Shown one piece after another: positions 4,632-21,553 of a DNA stretch of 64,000 nt (its first letter is position 1; the number at the start of each line of letters is the position of its first letter). The DNA is from Coriobacteriia bacterium (GTDB taxonomy: Bacteria > Actinomycetota > Coriobacteriia > WRKU01): contig WRKU01000002.1 of assembly GCA_009777935.1 (NCBI GenBank), positions 11,205 through 75,204 on the forward strand, in the 5' to 3' direction. The notes under the pieces were generated by a model. The model saw only the letters and a list, made by a program, of their open reading frames with translations, ran no database searches and was not told where the DNA came from. A program made the translations under genes and the position numbers.

Positions 4632-4660
4632 CGAGCATATCTGAGACGAAAGGGATATTC

Positions 4661-5536: not shown

Positions 5537-5582
5537 GGATAGTATTCGACGTCGGTTAGCTGAGGATGACGCTCGGCCCCCG

Positions 5583-6527
5583 ATGACCACAGAGGACGCT
5601 AAGCGCCTTACTAAACGCTTGGCACCGTGGGTATTTCTGGCGGTGGTATTTCTGCTCTTGCTGCCCGGCGCCGTTGCGACGGTCTGGGTTCCCGCGTGTA
5701 GCTCGTGCCATGTTACCGTTGCTGAAGCAACGGCCGAGAGAGCACACGTCGATATGGCCTGCACCGACTGTCATAATACCGGAGGACGTCTCGCATACCG
5801 ACAAATCGTTATGTATAGCATGGTAACAAGGCTTGCCAATCCTTCAAATCTCGGTGCGGCAAACGTGTCTGATGAAACATGTCTCACCTGTCATGAAACG
5901 GACGTCACGCGCGGCACTACGCTGTCAAATGGCATCAATATCAGACATTCGGCATGCGCAGCAACCCTCGCATGCACAGTATGCCACTCGACGGCCGGTC
6001 ACTCGACGCCCGGCCTCCAGTATCAATACTCGATGGATCAGTGTCTCTGGTGTCATACCGACCAAATGGTCGATGCCGCCAACGAGGAAAGCTGCTACCT
6101 CTGTCATGATGGACGGTATCGATCGGTCATACCGAATAACACCTCGGCTTTTCGTATCACCCATAATGAGAACTGGCTTCGAACACACGGGCTTGGCGAT
6201 ATGAACTCTTGCCGGAGTTGCCACACAACGGAAACCTTCTGTGGCAGATGCCACGGACCACTAGTACCCCATCCTCCGACCATCCTTATGCGACATTCAG
6301 AGCCGGCGCGTGATCCGAACAATAAGTGCGACAGTTGCCATCCACAGTCGTTCTGTGACGATTGTCATGGCATGGAAATACCACATCCTGAGCGGTTCCT
6401 CCAAGAACACGCTGCCATCACCAACGAGCTTGGCGAGGACGCCTGTTATGGCTGTCATCTCACGAGCGATTGTCTGCGGTGCCATATGGCGCACATTCAT
6501 CCGGGTTGGGGGGTGTTCACGCGCTGA
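5583..6527 (+). CDS. Membrane-anchored multiheme cytochrome c with 12 CXXCH motifs (NapC/NirT-like N-terminal anchor)
   Basis: CSSCH, CTDCH, CLTCH, CTVCH, CLWCH, CYLCH, CRSCH, CGRCH, CDSCH, CDDCH, CYGCH and CLRCH were counted directly. N-terminal helix 'WVFLAVVFLLLLPGAV'. The start is uncertain: the ORF opens at 5466, with alternative ATGs at 5514 and 5583. 5583 is chosen because it lies just after the upstream stop at 5536. Confidence 0.75.
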   Translation: MTTEDAKRLTKRLAPWVFLAVVFLLLLPGAVATVWVPACSSCHVTVAEATAERAHVDMACTDCHNTGGRLAYRQIVMYSMVTRLANPSNLGAANVSDETCLTCHETDVTRGTTLSNGINIRHSACAATLACTVCHSTAGHSTPGLQYQYSMDQCLWCHTDQMVDAANEESCYLCHDGRYRSVIPNNTSAFRITHNENWLRTHGLGDMNSCRSCHTTETFCGRCHGPLVPHPPTILMRHSEPARDPNNKCDSCHPQSFCDDCHGMEIPHPERFLQEHAAITNELGEDACYGCHLTSDCLRCHMAHIHPGWGVFTR

Positions 6528-7735
6528 TGCAAGACTTTATCGATACCCTTTGGCAGATTGTCAACGTTCCCGTGCACGAAGACTCCTTTGCACAGCGGCT
6601 TGACTATCTGGCCGGTGTCATACGAAATCCGCAATCCGATGTTCCAGTTGCCATTCTGCTTTTTGCGATAGCATCACTTATTATTCTGGTAATCTTTTCT
6701 ATTGTTTTGTTAATAGTCTTAAGACTTGCGCACTCAGAGCCGACGTACGCGCTCGTTGACGCCGAGGGTAATCCTATTCGCGAGATATCGGCCGAAGAAG
6801 CTGAGAAGCGTCTCAAAGGGTCACCACTTGAAAAGGTGCAACGAACAACACGTGAGATACTCGATAAGACGGCGGCAAAGATTGCTATCAACATTATCAT
6901 ATGGGTTGGTATCGCACTCATTGTGGCGGCAATTACGGGGACGGCGACACGCTCGAATACGTTTTGTAACTCGTGCCATGAGGAAAACAATCATTCGCAA
7001 ATGCTTGCAGGCACTGCTCATGCAAATGTACTCTGCGTCGACTGCCACGAGACTGGAGGGATGGTGCAGTCTTTCACGGTGAACGTGCCAGGACGACTCG
7101 TTCATACTGCAGCGGGCTTTTTCTGGCAGTCGGGTGTGAACTACGCGTTCTTCCCGCGCGAATCGTGCTTCCGGTGTCATCCGCGTGAGAGTCTTGCTGA
7201 GACGATAATAGTCGACAACATTGCGATGCAACATGAGCCGCCCCTAGAGGCAGGGCTTACCTGTATTCAGTGCCACACTTTTAGTCCCTCACAGGAGTTT
7301 TCGTTTTCAACGCGAGGCATGCAAACGTGCTTGCGCTGTCATGATGGCGAGAACGTTAATCTGGACTGTGAAATATGTCACCGTCCTTCGTTAAGCGTTG
7401 TGCCGCGTACCGAACTCGATCCGGATACAACGGCTCAGGCACTACTCCAAGGTGTCGACTTCCAGCAAGGTTGTTATCGCTGTCACGACCCACGCCCGTG
7501 CGACGCATGCCATGGCTATCGTATACCACACGCCGAGGGCTACACGTTTCAGCCGCATGTCGATGATGCGCGGCGATATGGGTATCGAACGTGCTTAATA
7601 TGCCATTGGAAGGGGTCACCGACGGGTATTCCCACCTGCGATGATCCGGGATGTCATGGCAATATTTGGCAACTGATGGAGGTTCCCAACCCTTCCGGAC
7701 AAGTGCCCAGCCCCTCTTGGCGACGGCTCAGATAG
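6527..7735 (+). CDS. Membrane-bound multiheme cytochrome c with 9 CXXCH motifs plus one CX4CH, and two TM helices
   Basis: CNSCH, CVDCH, CFRCH, CIQCH, CLRCH, CEICH, CYRCH, CDACH, CLICH and CDDPGCH. TGATG overlap with the upstream cytochrome. Helices 'VAILLFAIASLIILVIFSIVLLIVL' and 'INIIIWVGIALIVAAITG'. Confidence 0.8.
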   Translation: MQDFIDTLWQIVNVPVHEDSFAQRLDYLAGVIRNPQSDVPVAILLFAIASLIILVIFSIVLLIVLRLAHSEPTYALVDAEGNPIREISAEEAEKRLKGSPLEKVQRTTREILDKTAAKIAINIIIWVGIALIVAAITGTATRSNTFCNSCHEENNHSQMLAGTAHANVLCVDCHETGGMVQSFTVNVPGRLVHTAAGFFWQSGVNYAFFPRESCFRCHPRESLAETIIVDNIAMQHEPPLEAGLTCIQCHTFSPSQEFSFSTRGMQTCLRCHDGENVNLDCEICHRPSLSVVPRTELDPDTTAQALLQGVDFQQGCYRCHDPRPCDACHGYRIPHAEGYTFQPHVDDARRYGYRTCLICHWKGSPTGIPTCDDPGCHGNIWQLMEVPNPSGQVPSPSWRRLR

Positions 7736-7736
7736 C

Positions 7737-9482
7737 GTGCTCGATTCTATGCGTAAATACGCTCTGGCGCTCTTCATGCTCGCGTGTTTTCTCGCGCCGG
7801 GCGCATTCCTCATCTTCACTGTTCCTCAACTTTACTACGCACAGATATGGTTCGTAATAACACCGCTTATCGGTTATGCGATATTCGCCGTATGTGCGCG
7901 TGGAGATACGGTCTTTTCAGAACGAGCACTTTTTATTACAACACTCATCGTTGGCGCAGCGCTCGTGCCGCTACTTGTGAACCCGCATATCTGGCAACAA
8001 ATTACGTTTGACATCTATGGCGAGATGCCGCTTATTTTGTGGCTGATGTATCCGCTTGTCTTTTTTATGGCATCGACGGTAAAGTTTGATTCGTCGGTTC
8101 GTCCGGGAATCTATGCGCTTGCGTACGTCGGCTTCTTGTTGATTGTGGTGGCCGGTGTTCAGCGTCTCATGATGGGCGATTGGTCGACGGTCTTTGGAAG
8201 TCGTGCATATTCGACGGTGGCGTTTGCCCCCATTCCCCTTTTGCTTCTTTACACGGCGAACCTCGACAAAGAGCACAAACCGGTGCATCTTGCGGCCGCT
8301 ATACTGGCTGTCGTCGGTGTTGCTTACTCTGGCGGCGCACTGGGTCTGTACACCGTCGCAGCTCTGCTGCTTCTTGCCGTGAGTTTTGCACCCGAGCTAC
8401 TGCAGATGCCGACGAAAGCTACCACATGGGCAAAACGAGGTGGGCGAGTCTTGCTGACGCTGTTTGTTACTGCTTCAGCCGTGGTTACCTTTGCGCCTGA
8501 CCTCGCACATACGATGCCCGATATTGCCGTGTTTTCCTCGAATGCGGTGGCGACGCGCATTCATCTCTGGGAGGCAGCGCAGAGGATGTTTCTCGCCGAA
8601 CCGTTATTCGGTTTTGGACCGGCTGGCTATCGATTCTCAGCGATACAGTTTTACGACCCTCAAATCTTTGAGTACACCATGACACTTGGCACCGACCCTA
8701 TTGCCTATAGCTCGCCGTCGCCGCACTCGCTTGCGTGGGAGGTGCTCACGAGGCTTGGCCTGTGGGGTGCTGTGCTTTTGACGGCTGCAGCGGTCGTGTG
8801 GGCTATTGATTTACGTGAAGCAATCCAAGAGAAAACGCGTAATAACCCGCGCATGTTGTTCGCTCTGTGTACGCTGGCCGCGCTTATGGCGCTCTTTGCG
8901 ACACCGTTTCATTTTGCGAGCGGCCTGCTCGTCGCGCTCTGTGCGGGATTGGCGATTGCGCCAACGGCGAGGGTGACAAAAGCGCGGGCTCCCCATTCTG
9001 CGCCGCAATCGTTGCGCTTCACGAATTTCTTGCCTGTCGCGCTTCTTGCGACAAACCTTATTCTGGTGCTTATCGGGGGATATGCGCTTTACGCACACAT
9101 CAATCTCCACACTCCTGACCCAACACCACAACACTATTTGGTACGGCTTGAGAATCTTCGTGCACGGGTGCCGGGCTATCCGTTTGCCGAGCGCGATTAT
9201 TATGAGATGCTCATCGTGACCGCTGGCGCACCACAGCAACAAGATGCTATCGCCGAAGAGATACTTACGCAAGCACCTTCGTATGTTTCGGGTTTTGGGC
9301 CAAATCTTGCATGGTATGCAGGGCTTATGCTCGATAACCTTGAGCGATGGGAAACAGACTCCGTGCGCTCTACGGATTCCGTCGTTATGGTACGCGCACT
9401 TCTCGATTGTGCAGCCGAAATAATGCCGTCGACCCCGGCGTATCTTGAGGCGCGCGAACGTTTGGCGGTTATGGTAGACTAA
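7737..9482 (+). CDS. O-antigen ligase / Wzy_C-domain membrane protein (candidate O-oligosaccharyltransferase or polymerase-ligase) with a C-terminal soluble extension
   Basis: At least 10 TM helices. 'HLWEAAQRMFLAEPLFGFGPAGY' resembles the conserved periplasmic loop of WaaL, PglL and Wzy_C proteins. Possible GTG start at 7737 or ATG at 7749. Confidence 0.55.
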   Translation: MLDSMRKYALALFMLACFLAPGAFLIFTVPQLYYAQIWFVITPLIGYAIFAVCARGDTVFSERALFITTLIVGAALVPLLVNPHIWQQITFDIYGEMPLILWLMYPLVFFMASTVKFDSSVRPGIYALAYVGFLLIVVAGVQRLMMGDWSTVFGSRAYSTVAFAPIPLLLLYTANLDKEHKPVHLAAAILAVVGVAYSGGALGLYTVAALLLLAVSFAPELLQMPTKATTWAKRGGRVLLTLFVTASAVVTFAPDLAHTMPDIAVFSSNAVATRIHLWEAAQRMFLAEPLFGFGPAGYRFSAIQFYDPQIFEYTMTLGTDPIAYSSPSPHSLAWEVLTRLGLWGAVLLTAAAVVWAIDLREAIQEKTRNNPRMLFALCTLAALMALFATPFHFASGLLVALCAGLAIAPTARVTKARAPHSAPQSLRFTNFLPVALLATNLILVLIGGYALYAHINLHTPDPTPQHYLVRLENLRARVPGYPFAERDYYEMLIVTAGAPQQQDAIAEEILTQAPSYVSGFGPNLAWYAGLMLDNLERWETDSVRSTDSVVMVRALLDCAAEIMPSTPAYLEARERLAVMVD

Positions 9483-9521
9483 GGGGTGTTTAGGACAGGT
9501 CTGAAGGTGAAAGGCGGCGCA

Positions 9522-10298
9522 ATGAGTGACGCAGATAAGCCGGTAGAAAAAGAAGTTGTAGTCGTGCGCAAGAAGCAGAAGATGTTTGATGATCCGGTGA
9601 ACCGGGTGCTTGGCGTTATTATCGCAGCACTTATCATCTGGTCGTTGGGGACGATATTAATGCTCATCTTGACCGGTGTCATTAACCTTTCCGGCGCACC
9701 ACAGAACGCCGATGATGCCGCCGTTCTCAAGTATGGGAGCGCACTCGATGCCGAAGCTGATTCGTGGCAGTGGCAGTTCTATGTGGTGACGCTTATTGAA
9801 TCGGGCAGATTGGCCGAGGCCGAAGCAGTCATCAATAGCGAAGACTTTCAGAATATCGATGTCTATCAGCATCAAGAGATTCTCTACTGTACGGCACTGC
9901 TCGAGTTCCGCCGAGGCAACTACGAAGAGGCCATCGCTCTTTATCGGCAGGTTATCGAGAAGACAAGAGAGTCGTACGAGCACATGCTCGAGACCGGTGG
10001 CGAGCACATGAACTGGGCTCTTGCTGAAGGCATATCTCCGAACTACTCCTTTGCGCTTCGCGATTTGACCGGTGCCTATATGGCGCTAGAAGAGTGGGAG
10101 TCTGCCTTGGAGACAGTGAGCCATTATCTTGAGATAAATCCTCAAGAGGCCGGTATGCTCATTGACCGCGCTCATATCAAGGAGCAACTAGGCGACTACG
10201 CCGGCGCTATAGCCGATCTTGAAATGGCGCAGGTATTCTTGCCAGAGGATGAAGAGGTTATCGAAAGTATCCAGCGTGTTGAAGGGAAACTGCAATGA
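9522..10298 (+). CDS. Tetratricopeptide-repeat protein with N-terminal TM anchor
   Basis: Single helix 'VLGVIIAALIIWSLGTILMLIL', followed by helical repeats with TPR-like spacing (e.g. 'EAIALYRQVIEK', 'GAIADLEMAQVFLPEDEE'). A ribosome-binding site (GAAAGG) lies upstream of the ATG at 9522. Confidence 0.6.
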   Translation: MSDADKPVEKEVVVVRKKQKMFDDPVNRVLGVIIAALIIWSLGTILMLILTGVINLSGAPQNADDAAVLKYGSALDAEADSWQWQFYVVTLIESGRLAEAEAVINSEDFQNIDVYQHQEILYCTALLEFRRGNYEEAIALYRQVIEKTRESYEHMLETGGEHMNWALAEGISPNYSFALRDLTGAYMALEEWESALETVSHYLEINPQEAGMLIDRAHIKEQLGDYAGAIADLEMAQVFLPEDEEVIESIQRVEGKLQ

Positions 10299-11599
10299 GC
10301 GAGGAACTAAAAGAGACACAACCGCAGAGTGTACCCCCAGCGGATTCGGATGCACAGTCACGGGTTGTTGAGATAGACGAGGCGCATGGTTCGGGCAAAA
10401 ATTCGGGTCGGGTCGCCCTTATTGTTGCTTTGATAACCTTGCTGTTCCTCATGGCGCTAGCAGCAGCCCTCCTTTTTTTCCTGACCGGTGGTCTGGGGGG
10501 TGGTGGTAGAACGGTCGCCGGTGTCACGTGGATACGGTCTATCTATGGCACCGGCCCCGAGCAGCACCAGCAGCACTCTCCCGGCGACGCACATCCGGCC
10601 CCCAGTGGCTCGCGCATGTTTGTGACCGATCAGTTCGGTATGCGTATCATCGAGTACGATCACAACGGTATGTATCACGGGTCGTTCGGTGGTCCGGACA
10701 CACTGCCGTATCCTTCGAACCTTGCCATCGCTGCCGACGGAACTAAATATATTGCGATGCAGACCCACGACAGAATCGTCATCTACGATTCGAATAACAA
10801 TCAAATTGGCGCCATCGAACTTCCCGAGTCACCGTTCTCTGTTGCCGTTAATCAAGACATGTTGCTGGTAGGTATGCGCGGAGCCTTTGGTGCTTTTGAG
10901 CTGGACGGTACTGAGATTGGATACGTCGGATCGTTTGGTAACGGCGAGTTCCAGTTCGATAATATCAGCGGCGTGGCTCTTGATAACAATAACAACGCAT
11001 ACATTGTGGATACGTTCAATAACCGTATTAGCAAGTATGATCCAGCCGGTGAACGGATATGGATTCATCGCACAGGTGTTCCGCGCAACGCAGGAATGAA
11101 CATTGCGCTTGAGGAGGATCTGGAAGTATCGCGCGAACTTTTTCCCTCTAATATGCAAATGCCCATGGGCGCTACCATCGATGCAGCCAACCGCCTCGTC
11201 ATCGTCGATATGATGGACTTCTCCATTGCGGCCTTCGATATGGAAACCGGTGAGTTCATTGATAAGTGGGGTACGTTCGGCGAGGCCGATGGCGCTCTCC
11301 ATTATCCAAACCAGATTGAGTACCATCGTGGCGAGGATGTGTTCTACATCGTTGAAACAGCGTTGGGTCGTGTACAGATTGTTTCATTGCCGGGTTCTGG
11401 CGGTGGCCTACTTACACAGTTAAATCGCAACTTGGCCGGTCCACTGGGTGCCTGCCTGTTACCGGTTCTCCTGATTATCGTCATCGCCACTGCCTATTAT
11501 GTAGCGCGTAAGATAATGAGAAAACGTGCCGAAGAAGCCGAGATTAAAGCTCAAGAGGCTCCAGAAGATACTGAGATGGGAACCAAAACGGGGGAATAA
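10295..11599 (+). CDS. NHL-repeat (six-bladed beta-propeller) protein anchored by both N- and C-terminal TM helices
   Basis: Repeated 'Y..D..N.RI..YD' blades, e.g. 'AYIVDTFNNRISKYDPAG', 'RLVIVDMMDFSIAAFD', 'VFYIVETALGRVQIV'. TM helices near residues 40-65 and 385-410. ATGA overlap at the start. Confidence 0.65.
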   Translation: MSEELKETQPQSVPPADSDAQSRVVEIDEAHGSGKNSGRVALIVALITLLFLMALAAALLFFLTGGLGGGGRTVAGVTWIRSIYGTGPEQHQQHSPGDAHPAPSGSRMFVTDQFGMRIIEYDHNGMYHGSFGGPDTLPYPSNLAIAADGTKYIAMQTHDRIVIYDSNNNQIGAIELPESPFSVAVNQDMLLVGMRGAFGAFELDGTEIGYVGSFGNGEFQFDNISGVALDNNNNAYIVDTFNNRISKYDPAGERIWIHRTGVPRNAGMNIALEEDLEVSRELFPSNMQMPMGATIDAANRLVIVDMMDFSIAAFDMETGEFIDKWGTFGEADGALHYPNQIEYHRGEDVFYIVETALGRVQIVSLPGSGGGLLTQLNRNLAGPLGACLLPVLLIIVIATAYYVARKIMRKRAEEAEIKAQEAPEDTEMGTKTGE

Positions 11600-11632
11600 C
11601 GCCATATGTTAATCTTTCTTAATAAAATTATG

Positions 11633-11663
11633 CCAATCCGCGGTCGATTTGGTCGCGGATTGG
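11633..11663. promoter_or_regulatory. Perfect 10-bp inverted repeat CCAATCCGCG-N11-CGCGGATTGG in the AT-rich leader upstream of the secreted cytochrome
   Basis: Seen directly. It lies 34 nt downstream of the stop of the upstream gene and about 170 nt upstream of the ATG at 11835. It could be a U-less terminator hairpin or a dimeric transcription-factor operator. Confidence 0.4.
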
Positions 11664-11834
11664 TGCGTCAAATATCACCTGAAATTACTTAAAAATCTTT
11701 CTGAAAAATATTTATTTTTTCCCGAAAATTTGATATACTATATATGGCTGACAAGTGTCAGATATTCTATGCTCGGATGGGGGGTGATAACAATGAAAGA
11801 GATGAAAAATGTTCCTTCTATTAAAGGAGATAGT

Positions 11835-13451
11835 ATGAAAAAAGTATTACTTACGCTTGCTTTGGCAGCAATGCTCGTCTTTGCATTTGCATCCGTTGCC
11901 GGAGCTAAGTATGCAGGTTATGCAATCGACGGTAACCGCGACCGCAACGAGATTAATTCCGAGACCGGAACCGTTAACTCACCACAGCCCGGCTTCCTCT
12001 CATGGGGCGGTGCTATCCGTATGCAGGATGCGAGTGGCTTTACCGCAGCTGCAACGGCACCCGGTGCACCCGGTGTTGGTAACGTGCACGGTGGCTATGC
12101 TATCGCGTCGTCTAAGTGTTTCGTCTGCCACTCTGCTCACCGCGCAGGTGTAGCAACGACACGTGCCTCACTGACCATGGGTGGCGCAGCGTGCGGTATC
12201 TGTCACACCGTATGGGGTGGCGGCGGTGCCAACAAGAAAGTTGAGTACAACCGTGACGAGATGCGTCCGCACTCGAGCGCAGACACGACCTGTCACCAGT
12301 GTCACGGTGGCGGTATCCACGGTGGTGGGGGATCTGAGTTCGCGGGTATGAACATGTTCCTCATTGGTGGCAGGGCTGACAGTCTCATCAGAGCAGAGAT
12401 TGGCGCGGACGCTGCCGATAACTCGAAGCCTAATCAGATTCCAAGTGGTCTGACAGCCGCTCGTACATGGTTTTTCGATAACGCTCCAGCATCGTCTGAT
12501 GCGTGGACCATTCCTACAGGTCTGAATCGTCAGACATGGAGTGTTGCAAAGGGTACCGTTACCGGTATGACCTGTAACCGGTCCGGATGTCACACCAACT
12601 CAGTCTTTGCTATCAATGAGTGGGGTGTTGGTGCGACGCGTAACGTTTCGAGCTCTAACCTTGGTGCAGCAATGGGCGGCACAGATACCAATACCGATCC
12701 GATTGCACACACCGGTCACATCAACCCTGGGCGCTATCGCAACACAGGTGGCGACGATTGTGCGCCGTGTCACGCCGGGAATGTATCCGCTGGCTTCCGT
12801 ATGCGCACGGTAGCGGGCTATGAAGATGCAGAACCTGTTGGTGTCGACGGTGACCGCTCGACTGCTTATGGCTGTGACCAGTGTCATGATATGGTCGGTG
12901 TTCAGACCGGTACGACCGCCTTCCCGCACGGTAACCGCGTAGCGGTATACGAGTGGGATGATAATGGTGCTGCAGTGACGACGACCTCGACGGCCGGTAA
13001 TCTCTGGATGTATGCAGGTAACATTGCTCAGATTTCTACCGTTAACTCGACCTGGTCCACCTGGCGTCAGGCCGACGGTATCACCGCACCAGCGGGCTCT
13101 CGAGTTCCCTCTCCGGTCGATCCTAGTTTCCGCGTCATTAACGGTGCGGTTGGTAGCAACAACGACGGTACTGCCAAGGACGGTGCGTGTCTGAAGTGCC
13201 ACATCACGACCGACGATGCGTCGTTCTACCATCTGGTGGGAAGCTATCCGGCAACGGTCGGTCCTGATGGATTCCGTCAGGCACTTACTCCGGCTGCTGT
13301 GGGTACCCGTCACCAGAATCGCGCTATCGGTACTTACTTTAACGCGACCACAACGACAGGCACCGCGTGGCAGAACAAGACCGTCTTTGACGGTACAAAC
13401 CTTGCCTCTGTCCGCGACAACGGTTCAGATGTTATCTGGATCTTCCGCTAG
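11835..13451 (+). CDS. Secreted Gly/Thr-rich multiheme cytochrome c with 6 CXXCH motifs plus one CX4CH
   Basis: Signal peptide 'MKKVLLTLALAAMLVFAFASVAGA'. A ribosome-binding site (AAAGGAGA) lies 7 nt upstream. Motifs: CFVCH, CGICH, CHQCH, CAPCH, CDQCH, CLKCH, CNRSGCH. No TM helix after the signal peptide. Thr-rich segments such as 'TTTSTAGN' and 'TTTTGTAW'. Confidence 0.8.
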   Translation: MKKVLLTLALAAMLVFAFASVAGAKYAGYAIDGNRDRNEINSETGTVNSPQPGFLSWGGAIRMQDASGFTAAATAPGAPGVGNVHGGYAIASSKCFVCHSAHRAGVATTRASLTMGGAACGICHTVWGGGGANKKVEYNRDEMRPHSSADTTCHQCHGGGIHGGGGSEFAGMNMFLIGGRADSLIRAEIGADAADNSKPNQIPSGLTAARTWFFDNAPASSDAWTIPTGLNRQTWSVAKGTVTGMTCNRSGCHTNSVFAINEWGVGATRNVSSSNLGAAMGGTDTNTDPIAHTGHINPGRYRNTGGDDCAPCHAGNVSAGFRMRTVAGYEDAEPVGVDGDRSTAYGCDQCHDMVGVQTGTTAFPHGNRVAVYEWDDNGAAVTTTSTAGNLWMYAGNIAQISTVNSTWSTWRQADGITAPAGSRVPSPVDPSFRVINGAVGSNNDGTAKDGACLKCHITTDDASFYHLVGSYPATVGPDGFRQALTPAAVGTRHQNRAIGTYFNATTTTGTAWQNKTVFDGTNLASVRDNGSDVIWIFR

Positions 13452-13495
13452 GATGTGTTTAAGTGGTTTAGTGTTACAATGTGTTTAGCGTAACA

Positions 13496-13530
13496 AGAAG
13501 GGGTCCTCCGGGACCCCTTCTTTATTGCCC
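13496..13530 (+). terminator. Rho-independent terminator
   Basis: AAGAAGGGGTCC-TCCG-GGACCCCTTCTT perfect 12-bp stem followed by TTATT, 45 nt after the cytochrome stop. Confidence 0.7.
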
Positions 13531-13667: not shown

Positions 13668-14480
13668 ATGATGAGACGACGTGGCATTCTTTCCGCATTC
13701 TTAGGCACAATCGTGCTTTTGGGTGTGTTAGGTATTGGCATCTCTGTGGCTGGTGCCGCGGTCTTTAATCGAATAAGCGTAATCGCTCGTCCCTACGATG
13801 CTTTTACGACCGAATACACGGTAATTGCGAGGCCGTCTGTGCACGACGCTCCGGTTGGCACCGCACAGCTTGTCTTGCCGCGCGACATCACGGTGGTTTC
13901 TGCACGCCATATCGCGGATGCCAGTAGCGTGGATGATGAGGGCGAAGCAGAATACACCGTCGAGCCACATTCGAATGGTATTGATGACGTCTACACCTTT
14001 GTTTTGGCCGATGAAGAAGGCACAAGCGGGCTTTTCGATTGGCAAGGAGTTCAGATAGTGCTCCACGCCGATGAACCGCTGTATTCTGAGACCGATGACG
14101 GTCAAATTGTGTCTTCGTTTCGATTCGTTGCACCAAACCCTCTATCAGGTCTCGAAATTGGCTTCGAGGCTCCAGCGAGGATGACAGGCAGCGGTGCTGG
14201 TGTCGTTTTGCTTGAGGAGGACGCATACGATAGGGCAGTATATGGTATTACTCGCGCAGAGAACGTGCGTGCGGATGAAGAGATTGTTGCACAGGTCGTC
14301 TTCAATCTTATTGAAGATCCTGGTCCGGCCGAAGCCGTGGCGCTTAGTGTCACTGAGTCAGTCGAAGAACATAACCGGGGCCTCATCATAGGTGCGCTCA
14401 TTGGTGCAATCATCCTTGTCGTCGTAGTCGTCGTGCTCGTTGCACGCAAGGTCAGTAAGGATAGGAAGCAGGCACAGTAG
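13668..14480 (+). CDS. Uncharacterised surface protein, paralog B (signal peptide and C-terminal TM anchor)
   Basis: Signal peptide ending 'VAGAAVF'. C-terminal helix 'LIIGALIGAIILVVVVVVLVA' followed by 'RKVSKDRKQAQ'. 'ADEPLYSETDDGQIVSSFRFV' and 'LEIGFEAPARMTGSG' align with the paralog at 14541. Confidence 0.6.
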   Translation: MMRRRGILSAFLGTIVLLGVLGIGISVAGAAVFNRISVIARPYDAFTTEYTVIARPSVHDAPVGTAQLVLPRDITVVSARHIADASSVDDEGEAEYTVEPHSNGIDDVYTFVLADEEGTSGLFDWQGVQIVLHADEPLYSETDDGQIVSSFRFVAPNPLSGLEIGFEAPARMTGSGAGVVLLEEDAYDRAVYGITRAENVRADEEIVAQVVFNLIEDPGPAEAVALSVTESVEEHNRGLIIGALIGAIILVVVVVVLVARKVSKDRKQAQ

Positions 14481-14540
14481 GCTGCAAACTAAGCCGCAGG
14501 CAGGCTGTTTGTAAAACCTGAACAGGAAGGTAGAGGCACG

Positions 14541-15311
14541 ATGAAGCGACTTGCCATCTTTATGACACTCGTAGGGGCTGTTCTACTCTTTGGCATGACG
14601 GGTTTGGGCGCAACCGAGGCTGGTGCTGCCTTCCAGCGCGTGGTCATCACCGGTTCCCCTCATGGCGATACAGCGGCCGAATACGAGGTTATTGCCCGAG
14701 TCTCGGCCCATCATCTTCCGAAGGATGCACCGAGACTTATACTTCCCGTTGATTTTGACGTAGTCGAGGTGGAGTATCTCTGGAGTGCTATGAGCCAGGG
14801 TGTGGAGCCTGAAAAGTATGCTGTTGGGCCTCATCCCGATGGGTGGGGTAACGTCTATTCGTTTAGCGTGACAGACTGGACAGGAATCCGGCTTGTGTTC
14901 CGTGTCGACGAACCACTGTATCGAGAAAACGACGACGGTGACCTTGTCTCGAGCTATTCTTTTAAAGTTGATTACGCTTTGTCCGAGCTCGTCATTGGCT
15001 TCGAGGCACCTGAGGGCATGGTTGGCACGGGCAAAGACGTTATCTTTTTGGGAGAAAGCGCGGATGATGTGCCTCTTTACGGCATCAACGTTGCGCCGGC
15101 GCGCGCAGGACAGGAAATCGTCGCCGAAGTTACCTTCACTGAACCTGAACCCGAAGTCGAACCGGGGTTCTTTGCGACTCTTAGTGCCAAGATAACCGAT
15201 CTTGCGCGCGAACATACGGTTGGATTAATCGTCGCCGTGTTGGTGGGCGGGATAGTACTTGTCGCTGCGGTTGCACTGTTCGTTGTCTGGCGAAGCCATC
15301 ACGAGAGGTGA
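14541..15311 (+). CDS. Uncharacterised surface protein, paralog C (signal peptide and C-terminal TM anchor)
   Basis: 'VDEPLYRENDDGDLVSSYSFKV' and 'LVIGFEAPEGMVGTGKDV' blocks. C-terminal helix 'LIVAVLVGGIVLVAAVALFVV' followed by 'WRSHHER'. Confidence 0.6.
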   Translation: MKRLAIFMTLVGAVLLFGMTGLGATEAGAAFQRVVITGSPHGDTAAEYEVIARVSAHHLPKDAPRLILPVDFDVVEVEYLWSAMSQGVEPEKYAVGPHPDGWGNVYSFSVTDWTGIRLVFRVDEPLYRENDDGDLVSSYSFKVDYALSELVIGFEAPEGMVGTGKDVIFLGESADDVPLYGINVAPARAGQEIVAEVTFTEPEPEVEPGFFATLSAKITDLAREHTVGLIVAVLVGGIVLVAAVALFVVWRSHHER

Positions 15312-15521
15312 AGCTTTCGGAAGATAACACCAAAATGGGCGACGTGTTAGCACAACTCGGCAGATTGCTCAGAGCAGAAGTCACATGACAGTAACATAAA
15401 TCAGGTTAATGCAAACATACATGTCGTATTGCAGTAGGATGAAGTGAGCGGCATGGGGTCTGTGTGTGCAATCTGCCGCAAATGGTTTCTAATTTGAGGT
15501 ACACCAGCAAGGAGGGCACTG

Positions 15522-16172
15522 GTGGAATTCATGTTACTAATATTTTCGAGCATCATCGCAATTGGGACACTGGCTGTGCTTATTTGGCAAGTTTCATTGC
15601 TTACCCGTCAAGTGGTTTTGGCGAGGAAGAGCATGGAAAATCAGTACGAACAAACAAGGCGCGTGCAGACAGTAGCGGTAAGTGCTAACTGGACCTCGGC
15701 CATGAGCCCTGCGTTGTATTTTGCGTTTCGGATAGTTTCACAACTTGATGACAAGCAGTGTGACAACTTGTATCGGCTTGTTAGTTTTGATGTGCAAAAT
15801 CTTGATCCGGGTCTCAAACCTTATTTATGTGAGTTATGTATGGCAGAAAAACATCAGAACGAATGCTCAGAAGAGTGTTCGGCTAGTGAAACGTATGCTC
15901 ACATATCAGGGAAAGCGCTTTCCGAACTTAGGACAGTTGCAATACGATTCCTAAATGAAGCCGAGACGGTTATGACTGCACGCGCGCTGGGCATAGTTGA
16001 TAAAGACACTATTGATCGTCAATTTATGTTCTTAGTCGATCCACGCAAGGGACAGCCGGCATTAGAGAAATTTAGAAAAGTTTCAGGTGGCTATCCTAAT
16101 TTAGATGCATTTATCGAAGAGCTTAAAGAGGCAAATAATGCTTCTTATAAGTCTCCTTTAACAGTCGAGTAA
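15522..16172 (+). CDS. Hypothetical protein with N-terminal TM helix, in a low-GC islet
   Basis: 216-aa ORF with an N-terminal helix 'MLLIFSSIIAIGTLAVLIW'. The surrounding roughly 0.9 kb (15.4-16.3 kb) is visibly AT-richer than the flanks. No family recognised. Confidence 0.4.
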   Translation: MEFMLLIFSSIIAIGTLAVLIWQVSLLTRQVVLARKSMENQYEQTRRVQTVAVSANWTSAMSPALYFAFRIVSQLDDKQCDNLYRLVSFDVQNLDPGLKPYLCELCMAEKHQNECSEECSASETYAHISGKALSELRTVAIRFLNEAETVMTARALGIVDKDTIDRQFMFLVDPRKGQPALEKFRKVSGGYPNLDAFIEELKEANNASYKSPLTVE

Positions 16173-16284
16173 AAAATTCTATGGTTTTGTCGCCAGAAGA
16201 GTTATAATGAGACGTAGGAGAAATCCTCGGCGAAGGGAGCAGAAATGAAATATGATGCGTGACATAGAGCCAAACCAATAAAGT

Positions 16285-16319
16285 GAGCCCCTTTCTTTCG
16301 AGAAGGGGCTCCTTCTTTT
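16285..16319. terminator. Bidirectional Rho-independent terminator between convergent genes
   Basis: GAGCCCCTT...AAGGGGCTC hairpin followed by CTTCTTTTG. It lies between the + gene ending at 16172 and the - gene ending at 16329. Confidence 0.6.
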
Positions 16320-16328
16320 GTCGATTAT

Positions 16329-17537
16329 TCACTGTTGGTACAGTTCGAGATATTGTGGGATAACGACGCTCGTGTCGTAGTGGGCGAGCGCGTGGCTGTG
16401 TTGTGTTGCGGCTAGGGTGGTGCGCTCTTGTGGCGTTGCGGTTGCCCAATGTTCGATAAGGTCGGCGAGTGCCTCGGGCGTGGGCTCACAGAGGGCGTTA
16501 GCATTGCGCACCTCGTCCGTGATGCCGCGGGTACGGGTGCCGACGATTGGCACACTGGCGGCCACAAACTCCATCAGCGAGCGTGGTAGCCCTTCGCGTT
16601 TGCTGACCAGTAGCCCCAAGTCACAGGCGACACAGAGCGCGGGGATGTCGGCAAACGGTACCGCCCCCGTGAAGTGCACGCTGTCGGCGAGGTTATGTTG
16701 CCGCACATATGCGCGAAGCCTACGCTCAAGCGGACCGCTGCCTATGAAGACGAAGCGAACAGGAGCGGTGCGTTGCGCGTGCTTCCGATGTTCGCGCTCT
16801 GAGCGCTCCTTCAGCAGACGCACTGCATCGAGCACGAGGCGGTGGCGTTTGTTCGCAGAGAGCTCGGCAATCACCCCGACGACGAACGCATCGGCATCGA
16901 TTCCCCGCTCAGCGCGGATAGCCGCACCGTCGGCAGCCGCAGCTGCTGTGCCAAACGCGGCGAAGTCGAAGCCCATACCATCGATACGCCGCAGCTCGCA
17001 GACGCGCTCGCTTCCCACGGTCAGCGCACACAGATTCGCACCGGCGACTTCATCCTCATCGTTCATGACGACGAGCGTATCGGTCCCGTGTATGACAAGC
17101 CGTTCAGCGGCGCGATATGCGAACGCACTAATGCCAGCACCTTTGTAAAAATGCAGGCCATGGGCGGTATATATAATGCGTGGTTTGTTCGCCCAACACG
17201 GCCTATACACGCCACCTTGCCCGTCGCGTTCGCGCATCTCGGCCAACGCTAAGCGTGTCACAAACGCGGCAATCGGCGTGTGCACGTGTACAACATCGTA
17301 TTCCTCATGCTCAACGAGCTCGCGAATCTCACGCGCGAAACGTTGCACCCTCAAGAGCGACAGCGGCGAACGTGTCCACCCAATCTCATGCACTGCATCG
17401 AAGTCGCCGTCCAAACTCGTGCCGTCATCGTGCGTCAAAGCATCGACAGTCCACCCCGTATCGCGGAGCGCACGGGTAAGCGGCAACAAAAATGCCCGCA
17501 GAGTAACACCGATTGTCGTTACCATTAAAGCCTTCAT
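16329..17537 (-). CDS. Glycosyltransferase family 4 (GT-B)
   Basis: 402 aa. 'MKALMVTTIGVTLRAFLLP' N-terminus typical of WbuB/PimA-like GT4. 'GTRTRGITDEV' near the C-terminal domain. A TATAAT sits 6 nt upstream of the ATG on the minus strand. Confidence 0.75.
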   Translation of the reverse strand: MKALMVTTIGVTLRAFLLPLTRALRDTGWTVDALTHDDGTSLDGDFDAVHEIGWTRSPLSLLRVQRFAREIRELVEHEEYDVVHVHTPIAAFVTRLALAEMRERDGQGGVYRPCWANKPRIIYTAHGLHFYKGAGISAFAYRAAERLVIHGTDTLVVMNDEDEVAGANLCALTVGSERVCELRRIDGMGFDFAAFGTAAAAADGAAIRAERGIDADAFVVGVIAELSANKRHRLVLDAVRLLKERSEREHRKHAQRTAPVRFVFIGSGPLERRLRAYVRQHNLADSVHFTGAVPFADIPALCVACDLGLLVSKREGLPRSLMEFVAASVPIVGTRTRGITDEVRNANALCEPTPEALADLIEHWATATPQERTTLAATQHSHALAHYDTSVVIPQYLELYQQ

Positions 17538-17644
17538 AGTGCCATTATAATAGACCTATGGAAACCGCGCCGTACTCAACTGCGCAATTGTTCAATTATA
17601 TGTCTGACGTACGCAAATCCCCACGAAACCTCCGCCACTCGCGC

Positions 17645-17650
17645 TATAAT
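17645..17650 (+). promoter_or_regulatory. Putative -10 (TATAAT) for the gmd-fcl operon, with a GGAAAGGAG ribosome-binding site
   Basis: 'cgcTATAATagagagaccggaaaggagcacgtgccATG'. The -10 lies 27 nt upstream of the start at 17677. Confidence 0.4.
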
Positions 17651-17676
17651 AGAGAGACCGGAAAGGAGCACGTGCC

Positions 17677-18771
17677 ATGTCCAAGCGCAATGTAGCACTC
17701 ATCACCGGCATCACTGGCCAGGATGGTGCATACCTCGCCGAGTTTCTGCTTGATAAAGGCTATGAGGTCCACGGCATCAAGCGTCGTTCTTCGAGCTTCA
17801 ACACACAACGTATCGACCATCTTTACCAAGACCCGCACGAATCCGACGTACACTTTCATCTCCACTACGGAGATTTGACCGATTCGGCCAACCTTATCCG
17901 CCTCATCAGCGAAATCAAGCCTAACGAAATCTATAACCTTGGTGCACAGTCGCACGTGCAGGTTAGTTTTGAGACGCCCGAATACACCGCCGATGTCGAC
18001 GCACTCGGTGCTCTGCGCATCCTCGAGGCCATCCGTATCCTTGGCCTTGAGCAGACGACGCGGTTTTACCAGGCCTCAAGCAGTGAGCTATTCGGCAAGG
18101 TCATTGAGATGCCGCAGCGCGAGACGACGCCGTTTTATCCACGCAGCCCGTACGCTGTCGCCAAGCTCTTTGCGTACTGGACTGCCGTTAACTATCGCGA
18201 AGCATACGGCATCTACGCCTGTAACGGTATTCTTTTCAATCACGAGTCGCCCCTGCGCGGTGAGACGTTTGTGACGCGCAAAATTACGCGCTCGGCCGCT
18301 CGCATCGCGCTCGGCATGCAAGACATGCTCTATCTGGGCAACCTCAATGCACAGCGCGATTGGGGCTACGCTGGCGATTACGTCGAACTCATGTGGCTGA
18401 TGTTGCAACAAGACGAACCCGACGATTACGTAATGGCGACCGGCGTGACGACCTCGGTACGCGACTTCTGCACGGCTGCGTTTCAGCGGGCCGGTATCGA
18501 GCTTCGCTGGGAGGGCGAGGGCATCGCTGAGCGTGGTATCGACAGCGCGACTAACCGTACCGTCGTTACCGTTGACGAGCACTACTTCCGCCCGGCAGAG
18601 GTCGACATGCTGTGTGGTGACGCGACCAAGGCACGAGAGAAGCTTGGCTGGGAGCCGAAGACCACGCTAGAAGAGCTGACCGCGTGTATGGTCGATGCCG
18701 ACCTCGAAGAGGCACGGCGTGAACGCCACCTGCGCGATGGCGGTTTCGAGACATACGAGCCGTGCGAGTAG
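17677..18771 (+). CDS. gmd: GDP-mannose 4,6-dehydratase
   Basis: '[44 protein letters not shown]...[26 protein letters not shown]' is near-canonical Gmd. Confidence 0.9.
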
Positions 18772-19730
18772 CGGACAAGATATTCGTCGCCGGGCACAAC
18801 GGGCTCGTTGGCTCGGCAATTGTGCGCGAGCTTACGCGGTGTGGCTACACGAACCTCGTAACCGCAACGCATGCCGAGCTCGATTTAACCAATCAAGTCG
18901 AAACCTGTGCTTTTTTCGAGCATGAACGCCCCGCTTACGTCTTTCTTGCCGCGGCGAAGGTCGGCGGTATCGGCGCGAATGCGGCCGAGCCGGCTCCATT
19001 CATCCACGATAACCTCGCCATTGCGCTCAACGTCATCGATGCAGCGTATCGCACTGGCGTCACCAAGCTCTGTAACCTCGGCTCTTCGTGTATCTATCCG
19101 CGTGACGCTGCACAGCCTATGGCCGAGGCAGCGTTGCTTACCGGACCGCTCGAGCCGACGAACGAGCCATACGCTATCGCCAAAATCGCCGCCATCAAGC
19201 TGTGCGAGGCGTACAACCGCCAATACGGCACCGACTTTATCTCGCTCATGCCGACGAATCTCTACGGTCCGGGCGACAACTACGACCTCACGACGAGCCA
19301 CGTGCTACCCGCGATGATTGCACGTTTCGATGACGCCAAGCGCACGGGAGCCAAAACTGTGACGCTATGGGGCGATGGTACGCCACAGCGTGAGTTTCTC
19401 TACGTCGACGATTTGGCCAACGCAGCCGTCTTCTTGATGGAACGCCATACCGCTGCTGAGCTCGGCGCATGGATTAACGTTGGCTCGGGCGAGGAGGTCA
19501 CCATCGCCGAGCTTGCGAATCTTATATGCGCGACAATATTTACTGATGGCATGAGCTCGGGCGGCCCCGCCGCACCTCCCACCATCGAGTGGGATGCTAC
19601 CAAGCCAAACGGCACGCCGCGCAAGCTTCTCGATTCCACGCGGCTTACCGGCCTTGGCTGGCAACCCAAGACGACGCTCGCCGACGGTCTTGCCGCAACG
19701 TACGCTGCTTATCTCAAGGATCGTCCATGA
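18762..19730 (+). CDS. fcl: GDP-L-fucose synthase (GDP-4-keto-6-deoxymannose 3,5-epimerase/4-reductase)
   Basis: '[28 protein letters not shown]...' short-chain dehydrogenase fold, 322 aa, immediately after gmd. Confidence 0.9.
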
Positions 19731-21553
19731 GCCTTATCGAGCGCATTATCAACGTTCGTGCGACGCGCCGCCGCTGGCAGATAGCACTCGCGGTGACTGA
19801 TGCAGCCGCCATTACGCTCGCCACATTGTTGACCTATCTCGCACGGTTTGAGGGCGCCGTTCCGCCTGAATTCGCACGCTTCCTCTTGCCAATGATTTTC
19901 GCATCGGTCATCGTCTATGGGACGCTTGCCGTTGTGTTTGGGCTCTATCGCGTGGTGCTGCGCTACGTGGGCATCGACACACTTTTGCGCATCGTCGGTG
20001 CCGTCATCATGGGTGCCGCGCTTCTTGCTATCGGCGATATATGCGTGAGTGCGTTTCGGGCATGGCAACGTCCGGTACCGCTTGGCGTTATCGGTATCCA
20101 GGCGGCGCTCGTTCTTCTGGCACTCGCATCTATCCGTATCGCTGTGCGTACGGCTCAGCATGTGCGTTCGGTGGCGCGTCACGAAGGGGAGCGTGCGCTA
20201 ATCGTTGGCGCGGGCAGTGCCGGCTCGCTTTTGTTGCGCGAGCTACAGATGCGTCGAGATATCGGCGTTGACGTCGTCGGTTTTCTCGATGATGATTCGG
20301 GGCTTGCGGCGAGTATTGTGGGCGGGGTGCGGGTTGTCGGCACAACCGCCGAGCTTGAGGATATCGTCGCAGCTGAAGATATTAGCGAACTGTTTGTTGC
20401 GCTTCCGAGCGCCAACGACACAGCCGTGCGCACTCTGCTCAATCGTGCGGCTGACCTTGGTCTTACCACCCACATCATGCCGAAAATCGTCGTCGAGCGC
20501 GGCAGCGTGCGCCTATCCGATATGCGCAAAGTCAACGTCGAAGACCTCCTTGGCCGCACACTGACTCCTATCGATACGCAGGCGGTGCGCACCACCCTTG
20601 AGGGTAAAATCGTTGCGGTGACCGGCGCAGCAGGGTCAATCGGCGCCGAGCTGTGCCGCCAGATTATCCGTATGTCTCCGGCCGAGCTTCACCTTTTTGA
20701 GATCGATGAATCGCGACTCTACGAGCTGCACTTTGAACTCGATGCAATCAAGGCCGGTATAGCACAGATGCACATTCTTGATATTCGTGACGAAGCTAAG
20801 GTTGAGCGGGTATTTGCCGACATCAAGCCGCAGGTTGTGCTCCACGCGGCTGCCTACAAGCACGTGCCGCTTATGGAAACCGAGCCGGCCGAGGCGTTGC
20901 GTACCAATGTGCTTGGCACGGCACACATCATCGATGCCGCTGCTCGTCATGGTGCCGAGCATTTTGTTCTCATTTCGACCGACAAGGCTGTTATGCCTGT
21001 CAACGTTATGGGCAAGACCAAAGAACTCTCCGAACGCCTTATGCTCGAGCGTGCCGCACGTTATCCGCAGATGACCTGTGTGGCGGTGCGCTTCGGTAAT
21101 GTGCTTGGCAGCCGTGGCTCGGTCGTGCCTATCTTTGAGGAGAAGCTATTGCGTGGTGAAAACCTCACCGTGACCGATGAGCGTGCTACCCGCTACTTTA
21201 TGGTAATCCCCGAAGCGGCGCGGCTCGTTTTGCAGGCGCAGGCGATTGGTGCTACCGGCGATATATTTGTACTTGAGATGGGTGAGCCGGTGCGTATCGT
21301 CGACCTTGCCCGCAAGATGATTGCGCTTTCCGGTATTCCCGTTGAAATCGAGTTCATAGGTTTGCGTCCGGGCGAGAAGTTGCACGAAACGCTTACCAAT
21401 GAGATGGAGGTGCTTGAGCCGACGTCGGCCGAAAAGATTCAGCGTGTTGCACGTCTAGCACTGGCACCACTCGATGAAGCGACCTATGCGCGTATCACAG
21501 CGCTTGCCGAGAACGGCCCCACGACCACACCGACTGAGGTGCTCGCGCTATGA
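19727..21553 (+). CDS. Membrane-anchored nucleotide-sugar 4,6-dehydratase (PglF/CapD/WbpM family)
   Basis: Four N-terminal TM helices, then a Rossmann '[12 protein letters not shown]' and CapD-type dehydratase domain. ATGA overlap at 19727. Confidence 0.85.

Follow-up and report, generated by a model that had tools for sequence, protein, structure and literature searches.

The 64,000-nucleotide stretch of Coriobacteriia bacterium DNA that we analysed (assembly GCA_009777935.1, contig WRKU01000002.1; the window, whose first letter is position 1) carries at 11835-13451 an open reading frame (ORF), here called H7, that encodes a secreted c-type cytochrome with seven predicted haem sites and lies in a cluster of genes for other multihaem cytochromes and putative assembly proteins. 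H7 is 100% identical to the NCBI entry 'hypothetical protein FWG78_00800 [Coriobacteriia bacterium]'. An earlier sequence-only reading had described this ORF as a secreted, Gly/Thr-rich multihaem cytochrome with a signal peptide and no later transmembrane helix, and all of the sequence features that it listed were found in place. The N-terminus (MKKVLLTLALAAMLVFAFASVAGA, followed by KYAGY) has the basic n-region, hydrophobic core and AxA cleavage site of a Sec signal peptide, an arrangement kept across the family, and residues 1-27 form the sole hydrophobic segment of the protein. Further along the chain are six CXXCH motifs (C95, C120, C153, C309, C347, and C452) and one CNRSGCH motif (C247-H253), and all 14 cysteines of H7 fall within these seven motifs; chance is excluded as their source because the motifs leave no cysteine over. 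As two or more CXnCH motifs in an exported protein are the general mark of a multihaem c-type cytochrome, the signal peptide and the seven motifs uphold the earlier assignment. Mature H7 contains 13.8% G, 12.5% A, 10.1% T, 6.6% N, and 2.3% L, compared with averages of 7.2% G, 6.5% T, 3.2% N, and 9.5% L for the other genes of the window, so that the description as Gly/Thr-rich was also correct. The gene and its haem sites are as follows, with conservation counted over an alignment of 56 H7 homologues (A1).

11835-13451, plus strand: H7 ORF, secreted heptahaem c-type cytochrome, 538 aa
11835-11906, plus strand: Sec signal peptide, 24 aa, with AxA cleavage before KYAGY
12117-12131, plus strand: haem site 1, CFVCH, at C95; invariant (56/56) and followed by an invariant H102 (CxxCHxxH)
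12192-12206, plus strand: haem site 2, CGICH, at C120; invariant (56/56)
12291-12305, plus strand: haem site 3, CHQCH, at C153; CXXCH in 51/56 (that of the window included), CX3CH in 4, CX4CH in 1
12573-12593, plus strand: haem site 4, CNRSGCH (CX4CH), C247-H253; CX4CH in 54/56, CXXCH in 2/56
12759-12773, plus strand: haem site 5, CAPCH, at C309; present in 55/56 and missing from short relatives
12873-12887, plus strand: haem site 6, CDQCH, at C347; invariant, inside the AYGCDQCHDMVG...AFPHGN block
13188-13202, plus strand: haem site 7, CLKCH, at C452; invariant

The sequence-only reading had proposed that CNRSGCH could be a haem site of the CX4CH type, and conservation supports this proposal. 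The CX4CH of site 4 and the plain CXXCH of the two homologues that differ (P0058 and P0091) share one alignment column, and C247, C252, and H253 are also invariant in a broader alignment of 35 sequences that includes relatives at only 20-25% identity. Because one conserved position thus accommodates either the usual spacing or the variant, we have strong comparative evidence that the CX4CH of H7 is a real seventh haem site, and we regard this as almost certain. CX4CH is classic in tetrahaem cytochrome c3. It is already catalogued as a minority haem motif (PMC11492766). Outside the motifs, H85, H102, H146, H162, H295, and H365 are invariant among the 56 homologues, and a further histidine follows the last motif in 55 of them, mostly at 20-50 residues downstream (range 7-53). 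These residues fit as seven candidate distal ligands for seven haems, and this match in number suggests that the haems of H7 are bis-His electron-transfer haems rather than parts of a catalytic site.

An exhaustive hidden Markov model search for relatives of H7 returned 434 cluster representatives at E<=1e-3 and 89 at E<=1e-30; a word-indexed protein search with the family profile added no further members. The relatives include shorter forms of ~380-470 aa, with the first three haems in common, and proteins that carry a large, surface-protein-like N-terminus as a fusion partner. In the latter (P0104, P0122, P0175, and P0193; 850-1270 aa) the H7-type haem domain is the C-terminal part, several have extra CXXCH motifs, and the annotation of one cluster member reads 'InlB B-repeat-containing protein'; these long proteins seem to be the same cytochrome joined to a surface protein. 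When compared with the c3/c7 families of Pfam (PF14522, PF14537, and PF02085), 34 of 35 family members match Cytochrome_C7 (E<0.01, best 4e-10) and 28 of 35 match c3_2, at levels from sub-threshold to weak, with H7 itself scoring 21.3 bits against a Cytochrome_C7 cut-off of 24.8. A scan of one genome per species found the family at 68 loci, the titles of which name, nearly without exception, metagenome-assembled genomes (MAGs) of Coriobacteriia, Coriobacteriaceae/-ales, Actinomycetes, Actinobacteria, or Actinomycetota; three loci come from two MAGs titled 'Eubacteriales'. The best H7 matches bear the sample codes of a study of MAGs from higher-termite guts (PMC7024585). Genomes often hold several copies, and single MAGs have from four to at least seven paralogues (at least seven in one MAG) with variable loop lengths, from which we conclude that the family is expanding and diversifying. 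H7 belongs to a well-known kind of protein, of which it is a new, uncharacterised family.

The genes around H7, all of which are read in the same direction, are listed below. The sequence-only reading had not recognised that H7 is surrounded by an electron-transfer module of two multihaem cytochromes, a TPR protein, and an NHL protein.

4661-5536, plus strand: secreted protein with C-terminal membrane anchor, 291 aa, paralogue 1; signal peptide and C-terminal hydrophobic segment
5466-6527, plus strand: MHC_A, 12-haem cytochrome with N-terminal membrane anchor; 12 CXXCH, hydrophobic segment at residues 48-81
6470-7735, plus strand: MHC_B, 10-haem cytochrome with membrane segments; 9 CXXCH and CDDPGCH, NapC/NirT/NrfH-like N-terminal haem region
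7737-9482, plus strand: Wzy_C-family (WaaL/PglL-type) polytopic membrane protein with a C-terminal soluble domain
9486-10298, plus strand: membrane-tethered TPR protein, 270 aa; TPR_14, TPR_2, and TPR_9 above cut-offs, one N-terminal hydrophobic segment
10295-11599, plus strand: NHL-repeat β-propeller, 434 aa, with N- and C-terminal membrane tethers; hydrophobic segments at 35-71 and 378-408
13668-14480, plus strand: paralogue 2 of the secreted C-terminally anchored protein, 270 aa; architecture and sequence blocks in common with 4661-5536
14541-15311, plus strand: paralogue 3 of the secreted C-terminally anchored protein, 256 aa

MHC_A matches Pfam Cytochrome_C7 and c3_2, and 26 of its 29 orthologues likewise have 12 CXXCH motifs. 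MHC_B matches Cytochrom_NNT at 30.4 bits (cut-off 24.1) and Paired_CXXCH_1, with weak matches to NrfH and NapC models of NCBIfam, and is on these grounds a candidate quinol dehydrogenase. Its CDDPGCH (residue 390) is, like site 4 of H7, a CX4CH site; long-spacer motifs are not conserved among the MHC_B orthologues, since 13 of 25 have none and the rest have CX3CH or CX4CH at shifting places. The NHL gene product scores 22 bits against Pfam NHL (cut-off 20) and also matches SGL. We then counted how often proteins of the window module are encoded near H7 relatives by comparing them with all ORFs of 69 distinct loci, from deeply diverged genomes (30-50% identity), that contain such relatives. An NHL gene was present at 46 loci, TPR and NHL genes together at 29, MHC_A and MHC_B together at 25, and NHL, MHC_A, and MHC_B together at 24, and 15 loci had at least two copies of H7. 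The order of the genes rotates (TPR-NHL-H7-A-B, H7-TPR-NHL-A-B, or A-B-(Wzy)-TPR-NHL-H7), pairwise identities of module proteins between loci are only 25-48%, and in one Actinomycetes MAG the five-gene set lies between housekeeping genes such as those for PNPase, RNase III, and SMC. Further, a termite-gut contig (L001) has two complete modules, at 4657-11719 and 14284-20547, ~2.5 kb apart. The rotating order, the low identities, the housekeeping setting, and the doubling on one contig argue that the gene set is a conserved functional module and not an instance of local synteny.

The module of the window is flanked by the three paralogues listed above, all of them built from a signal peptide, a ~200-aa domain, and a membrane anchor at the C-terminus. 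They match no Pfam or NCBIfam family. At 9 of the 69 loci, relatives of them lie no more than 10 kb from H7-family genes, and they may be a further accessory or docking component. We also note that the extreme C-terminus of H7 (residues 534-538) is kept in the family as an aromatic/aliphatic-x-aromatic-basic pattern (IWIFR, IYLWR, and LFLYR) and that the short forms terminate in ...GVGxxF/Y. C-terminal peptides are often bound by TPR domains, and, as a matter of speculation, the C-terminus of H7 could be a putative docking site for the TPR protein of the module.

The DNA on either side of the H7 coding sequence contains the following elements.

11600-11834, plus strand: AT-rich intergenic leader, 235 bp; 34% GC compared with 54% for the window
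11632-11664, plus strand: hairpin holding an inverted repeat; 14-bp RNA stem, -21.6 kcal/mol, z = -4.0, without a U-tract
11731-11739, plus strand: candidate extended -10 element TGaTATACT, picked by eye only
11794-11834, plus strand: in-frame upstream start with its own Shine-Dalgarno sequence, giving a 14-aa extension of the signal peptide (MKEMKNVPSIKGDS)
13495-13527, plus strand: intrinsic terminator; 12-bp GC-rich stem (13495-13522), UCCG loop, and U-rich tail, -27 kcal/mol, z = -5.1

The AT-rich leader, the strong ribosome-binding site (AAAGGAG at 11823-11829, 5 nt from the ATG), and the strong terminator had all been pointed out before, and the first two recur in the family. The 235 nt upstream of 25 homologous genes average 45% GC compared with 57% for their loci, nearly all of these genes have an AAAGGAG-type Shine-Dalgarno sequence, and many have clear GC-rich hairpins downstream. 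Since these features are conserved among the homologues, it would be a trait of the family that H7 is expressed separately from its accessory genes and probably at a higher level, as is seen with major structural subunits. The perfect inverted repeat that had been noted in the leader is indeed present (CCAATCCGCG at 11633-11642 and CGCGGATTGG at 11654-11663, 10+10) and occurs once in the window, where chance would give 0 occurrences, but a regulatory role for H7 was not supported. The repeat starts 34 nt past the stop codon of the upstream NHL gene (the hairpin 33 nt past), and its half-site has no second copy in the window and thus gives no sign of a regulon operator. It is more likely a 3' hairpin or terminator of the upstream operon, which is a simpler explanation than an operator for H7. 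An imperfect 19-nt direct repeat (AATCTTTCT.A.AAA.ATT, at 11611-11629 and 11694-11712, 84% identity) flanks the inverted repeat; it may have arisen by chance or serve as a binding site for a regulator. Neither Rfam nor tRNA models matched anywhere in the window, so that no riboswitch or leader RNA of a known type is present; the fold of the H7 5' untranslated region is no more stable than that of shuffled sequence (z = -0.16), and a scan with the sigma-70 consensus gave no promoter on the plus strand of the leader. As to where translation begins, the ATG at 11794 is preceded by the Shine-Dalgarno-like GGGGGGTGA (window 11780-11834) and may be the true start of H7. An in-frame layout of two Shine-Dalgarno sequences and two ATGs (...KGGVxMKE...KGExxMKK...), with the upstream ATG 13-17 codons ahead, is found in most of 37 family genes and, at nucleotide level, in L001 (9945-10000) and suggests either an extended n-region of the signal peptide or dual translation starts.

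Overall, we consider that H7 is the secreted outer component of an extracellular electron transfer (EET) module in a monoderm Coriobacteriia bacterium, with a probability of roughly 0.7, and that uncultured Gram-positive gut bacteria probably use this module to hand respiratory electrons to acceptors outside the cell. H7 would be transcribed alone from its AT-rich leader up to the strong terminator, exported by the Sec pathway, and cleaved after AGA24. Covalent haems would then be attached at each of the seven motifs that we observe (six CXXCH and one CX4CH), probably all with bis-histidine ligation as judged from the seven extra histidines, and H7 would thus relay electrons and have no catalytic role. 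Electrons from menaquinol would enter through the NapC/NirT-like MHC_B, pass to MHC_A and then to H7 in the cell wall or at the surface, and move on to insoluble or polymeric acceptors, for example Fe(III) minerals or humic substances; we infer this order (MHC_B, MHC_A, H7, acceptor) from topology and gene linkage. The TPR protein and the NHL β-propeller probably dock or assemble the cytochromes, and the Wzy_C-type protein would be an optional accessory. Published work on other Gram-positive bacteria and on the class itself is in line with an EET role. EET clusters of the Gram-positive Dethiobacter combine genes for CymA-like and secreted multihaem cytochromes with NHL and TPR genes and respond to ferrihydrite (PMC10376724), and the same co-location of cytochromes with NHL and TPR proteins is found here at 5466-13451 and, for NHL, MHC_A, and MHC_B, in the 24 loci counted above. 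Further, cultured Coriobacteriia (Anaerosomatales) have 17-18 multihaem cytochromes, and one of these organisms is an obligate Fe(III) reducer (PMC9686372), and a Coriobacteriales MAG with 37 multihaem cytochromes was enriched on an anode (PMC7399161).

Several observations weigh against an EET role. There are no cytochrome maturation genes in the window, and H7 carries no recognisable signal for attachment to the wall (neither LPXTG nor an SLH domain nor a membrane segment), so that its retention at the surface is assumed. None of the H7 homologues recovered is from a cultured organism, and the search with the NHL protein likewise gave homologues only in uncultured Actinomycetota and none in a cultured organism. 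H7 reaches no Pfam gathering score (MtrC/MtrF II-IV, PF22113, 23.1 compared with 30 bits), has no match in NCBIfam, and has no meaningful relative in the PDB by sequence or with two family profiles, which gave only motif-level matches to NrfA, NrfB, and c7 at E>0.03. The structural models of H7, which are monomers without haems, are only of moderate quality, with a predicted local distance difference test score (pLDDT) of 54.6 from AlphaFold2 with a 56-sequence alignment, and a pLDDT of 62.6 and a predicted template modelling score of 0.71 with a 94-sequence alignment without the signal peptide. The AlphaFold model has little regular secondary structure, and neither of the two models had a fold match in the PDB (Foldseek, nothing below E = 6). 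As regards the PDB searches, we rejected as spurious a CFA/I fimbrial trimer fusion that was found at E = 3e-6, which is the sum of three low-complexity alignments in which the cysteines are not conserved.

We next consider whether H7 is glycosylated, an addition that is compatible with H7 acting in EET and that would make the Wzy_C protein an O-oligosaccharyltransferase moving an undecaprenyl-linked glycan, made by the surrounding locus, to Ser/Thr residues of H7. We regard this as possible, with the odds somewhat against it. The sequence-only reading had placed H7 next to the Wzy_C gene; the two genes are in the same co-directional cluster but are not adjacent, since Wzy_C lies two genes upstream. 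It had also named Thr/Ser-rich surface cytochromes of monoderms as candidates for O-glycosylation; we give Gly/Thr richness no weight here, because it is general among loop-rich extracellular cytochromes, and OmcS of Geobacter sulfurreducens, the structure of which is solved, comes very close to H7 in both composition and haem density. The link of Wzy_C with the module nevertheless goes beyond coincidence. An orthologous Wzy_C subfamily (identity 28-36%) is present in or beside the module at seven deeply diverged loci in addition to the window (L013, L026, L034, L038, L039, L045, and L071), and, although the protein of the window scores only 24.3 bits against Pfam Wzy_C (PF04932; cut-off 31.7), five of the seven orthologues exceed the threshold with 34-44.6 bits. 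Common to the orthologues are a C-terminal soluble domain and a loop with the conserved sequence GSDPxAYSxPSPHSLxWExLTRLG; all eight sequences have PSPH(S/A)L without exception, and seven of the eight keep, in the large external loop, H[NSQ]X9GXX[GTY], which we take to be a ligase motif whose conserved catalytic-loop histidine presumably corresponds to H338 of Escherichia coli WaaL and H349 of PglL. Genes for PglL-type O-oligosaccharyltransferases usually adjoin their target, and 21 of 31 lie beside pilin genes (PMC3643930), which provides a precedent for the arrangement seen here. The Wzy_C gene lies inside the H7 module at 8 loci. The loop histidine, however, is shared by WaaL ligases and is thus not specific to PglL. 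The PglL_A motif does separate PglL from WaaL (PMC3643930), and PglL_A (PF15864) was not detected at E<=0.1 in the Wzy_C protein of the window or in any of its seven orthologues. Orthologues of Wzy_C were present at 6 of the 26 loci with MHC_B, or about a quarter of the module loci, and the other three quarters do without the gene. The H7 subfamily nearest to the window has a 12-aa linker rich in S/T/A/P after the conserved N-terminus, but the linker of the window's own H7 is charged and not S/A/P-rich. Similarly, PglF/E/D/C-like and glycosyltransferase genes near the module in the window and in L001 could supply a glycan, but the Wzy_C protein of the window may equally serve the cell-wall polysaccharide locus around it. 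A literature search gave no paper that joins multihaem cytochromes to PglL-type O-glycosylation.

The locus in question is a large cell-envelope glycan locus, at 332-4576 and 16329-49244 of the window, within which the module sits. It contains rmlABCD together with genes for a flippase, many GT2/GT4 glycosyltransferases, a GDP-mannose dehydratase and epimerase, and a dehydratase and an aminotransferase of the PglF/PglE-like kind. The gene at 37120-40875 encodes an amidase of 1251 aa that has six GBS Bsp-like repeats.

A second alternative is that H7 polymerises, in the manner of OmcS, OmcE, and OmcZ, into a cytochrome filament or 'nanowire' that spans the wall or lies outside the cell, with the TPR and NHL proteins assembling or anchoring the filament and the termini of H7 serving as interfaces. 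We compared H7 with an OmcS sequence that was verified as 100% identical to 6EF8. OmcS has 11.1% G, 12.3% A, 10.6% T, 8.6% S, and 6.1% N and 68 residues per haem (73 in H7), so that both the composition of H7, which is rich in G/A/T/S/N and poor in L/K/E, and its haem density are close to those of a filament cytochrome; yet many monomeric surface cytochromes have a like composition. The gene is laid out as that of a major structural subunit, with its own leader, strong Shine-Dalgarno sequence, and terminator, and both ends of the mature chain are conserved, as (K/T)(Y/F/W)(A/R)G(Y/F) at the N-terminus and as LFLYR / IYLWR at the very C-terminus; in a filament these termini would be the interfaces. 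Further, CxxCHxxH at haem 1 resembles the N-terminus of OmcS, and in 6EF8 the second histidine of that motif ligates the haem of the neighbouring subunit; in H7, however, one chain can ligate all seven haems itself. The cell wall has to be crossed by a protein that has no wall anchor, and dedicated accessory genes are conserved with it. Against this, homology with OmcS was rejected (hhalign probability 37.6% over 27 columns, and no match by phmmer or with the two profiles searched against the PDB), Foldseek matched no filament cytochrome of the PDB, and literature searches and a review yielded no Gram-positive cytochrome filament. We therefore think it unlikely that H7 polymerises. Slightly less likely again is the fuller proposal in which H7 founds a structurally new class of filament that takes electrons through the thick wall of monoderm Actinomycetota and past it, is assembled on a membrane-tethered TPR/NHL-propeller platform, is O-glycosylated in some lineages by a dedicated WaaL/PglL-like ligase of the module, and reduces iron and humic substances in the guts of soil-feeding termites.

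Finally, it is highly improbable that H7 acts as a multihaem enzyme (for example an oxidoreductase of the nitrite, sulfite, tetrathionate, or hydroxylamine type) and not as a relay because, even with weak, sub-significant profile matches to the haem regions of NrfA and NrfB and a W391-M392-Y393 segment that is invariant or nearly so in the family, H7 has no CXXCK or other special catalytic motif and no significant similarity to solved multihaem enzymes (NrfA at motif level only, E>0.8), and so lacks both the special haem motif and the homology of NrfA-, Otr-, and HAO-type reductases, has seven conserved histidines on hand for seven bis-His haems, is encoded beside two large membrane cytochromes, a TPR protein, and an NHL protein in place of enzyme partners, and has many paralogues per genome with variable loops.

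The mechanism of EET is understood almost only in the Gram-negative Geobacter and Shewanella, how electrons cross the wall of monoderm bacteria is poorly known, and we know of no characterised actinobacterial EET system. What the locus reveals is a module of uncultured Coriobacteriia and Actinomycetes that is compact, conserved, and duplicated in many cases, and H7, its proposed outer component, represents a new heptahaem family without a solved or curated relative. The module supplies targets for expression, structure determination, and meta-omics, namely H7, the two membrane cytochromes, the TPR protein, the NHL propeller, and sometimes the Wzy_C ligase. The closest members of the H7 family come from the guts of higher termites, soil or humus feeders included, and reduction of iron and humic acids occurs during gut passage in such termites; because of this origin, the module is a candidate molecular basis for that reduction. 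With the recurrent Wzy_C partner, the idea that a glycan ligase can be dedicated to a respiratory cytochrome could also be put to the test. Interest in H7 would be high only if its polymerisation or its dedicated glycosylation turned out to be true.

Compared with known systems, H7 is like OmcS (6EF8, hexahaem) in being secreted, loop-rich, and G/A/T/S/N-rich, with ~70 residues per haem and CxxCHxxH as the first motif, but it has seven haem sites and not six, one of them on CX4CH, shows no significant similarity to OmcS, and belongs to an organism without an outer membrane. Short haem-dense segments of the family match the class III (c3/c7-type) cytochromes at sub-threshold to weak levels, and CX4CH is known from that class, but H7 is about five times larger, falls below the gathering thresholds, and has large non-haem insertions and another gene context. 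The Wzy_C protein resembles the PglL, PilO, and WaaL enzymes in its Wzy_C domain, its external-loop histidine motif, and the position of its gene beside one for a secreted structural protein, but it has no PglL_A motif, has a conserved C-terminal soluble domain, and occurs in a monoderm without lipopolysaccharide. In gene types and logic the module agrees with the clusters of Dethiobacter alkaliphilus, which combine a CymA/NapC-like quinol oxidase with secreted multihaem cytochromes and NHL/TPR-repeat proteins, and with the systems of Thermincola potens and Carboxydothermus ferrireducens, all of which are likewise monoderm. The module differs from these Gram-positive EET systems in three respects: H7 has no detectable similarity to the solved Thermincola OcwA or other PDB cytochromes, its family occurs only in genomes of uncultured Coriobacteriia and Actinomycetes in the species-level scan, and the module has a recurrent Wzy_C-type member, a partner of which we found no description. 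H7 is thus best described as an uncharacterised family within a known functional kind, and its Wzy_C partner as an undescribed recurrent accessory.

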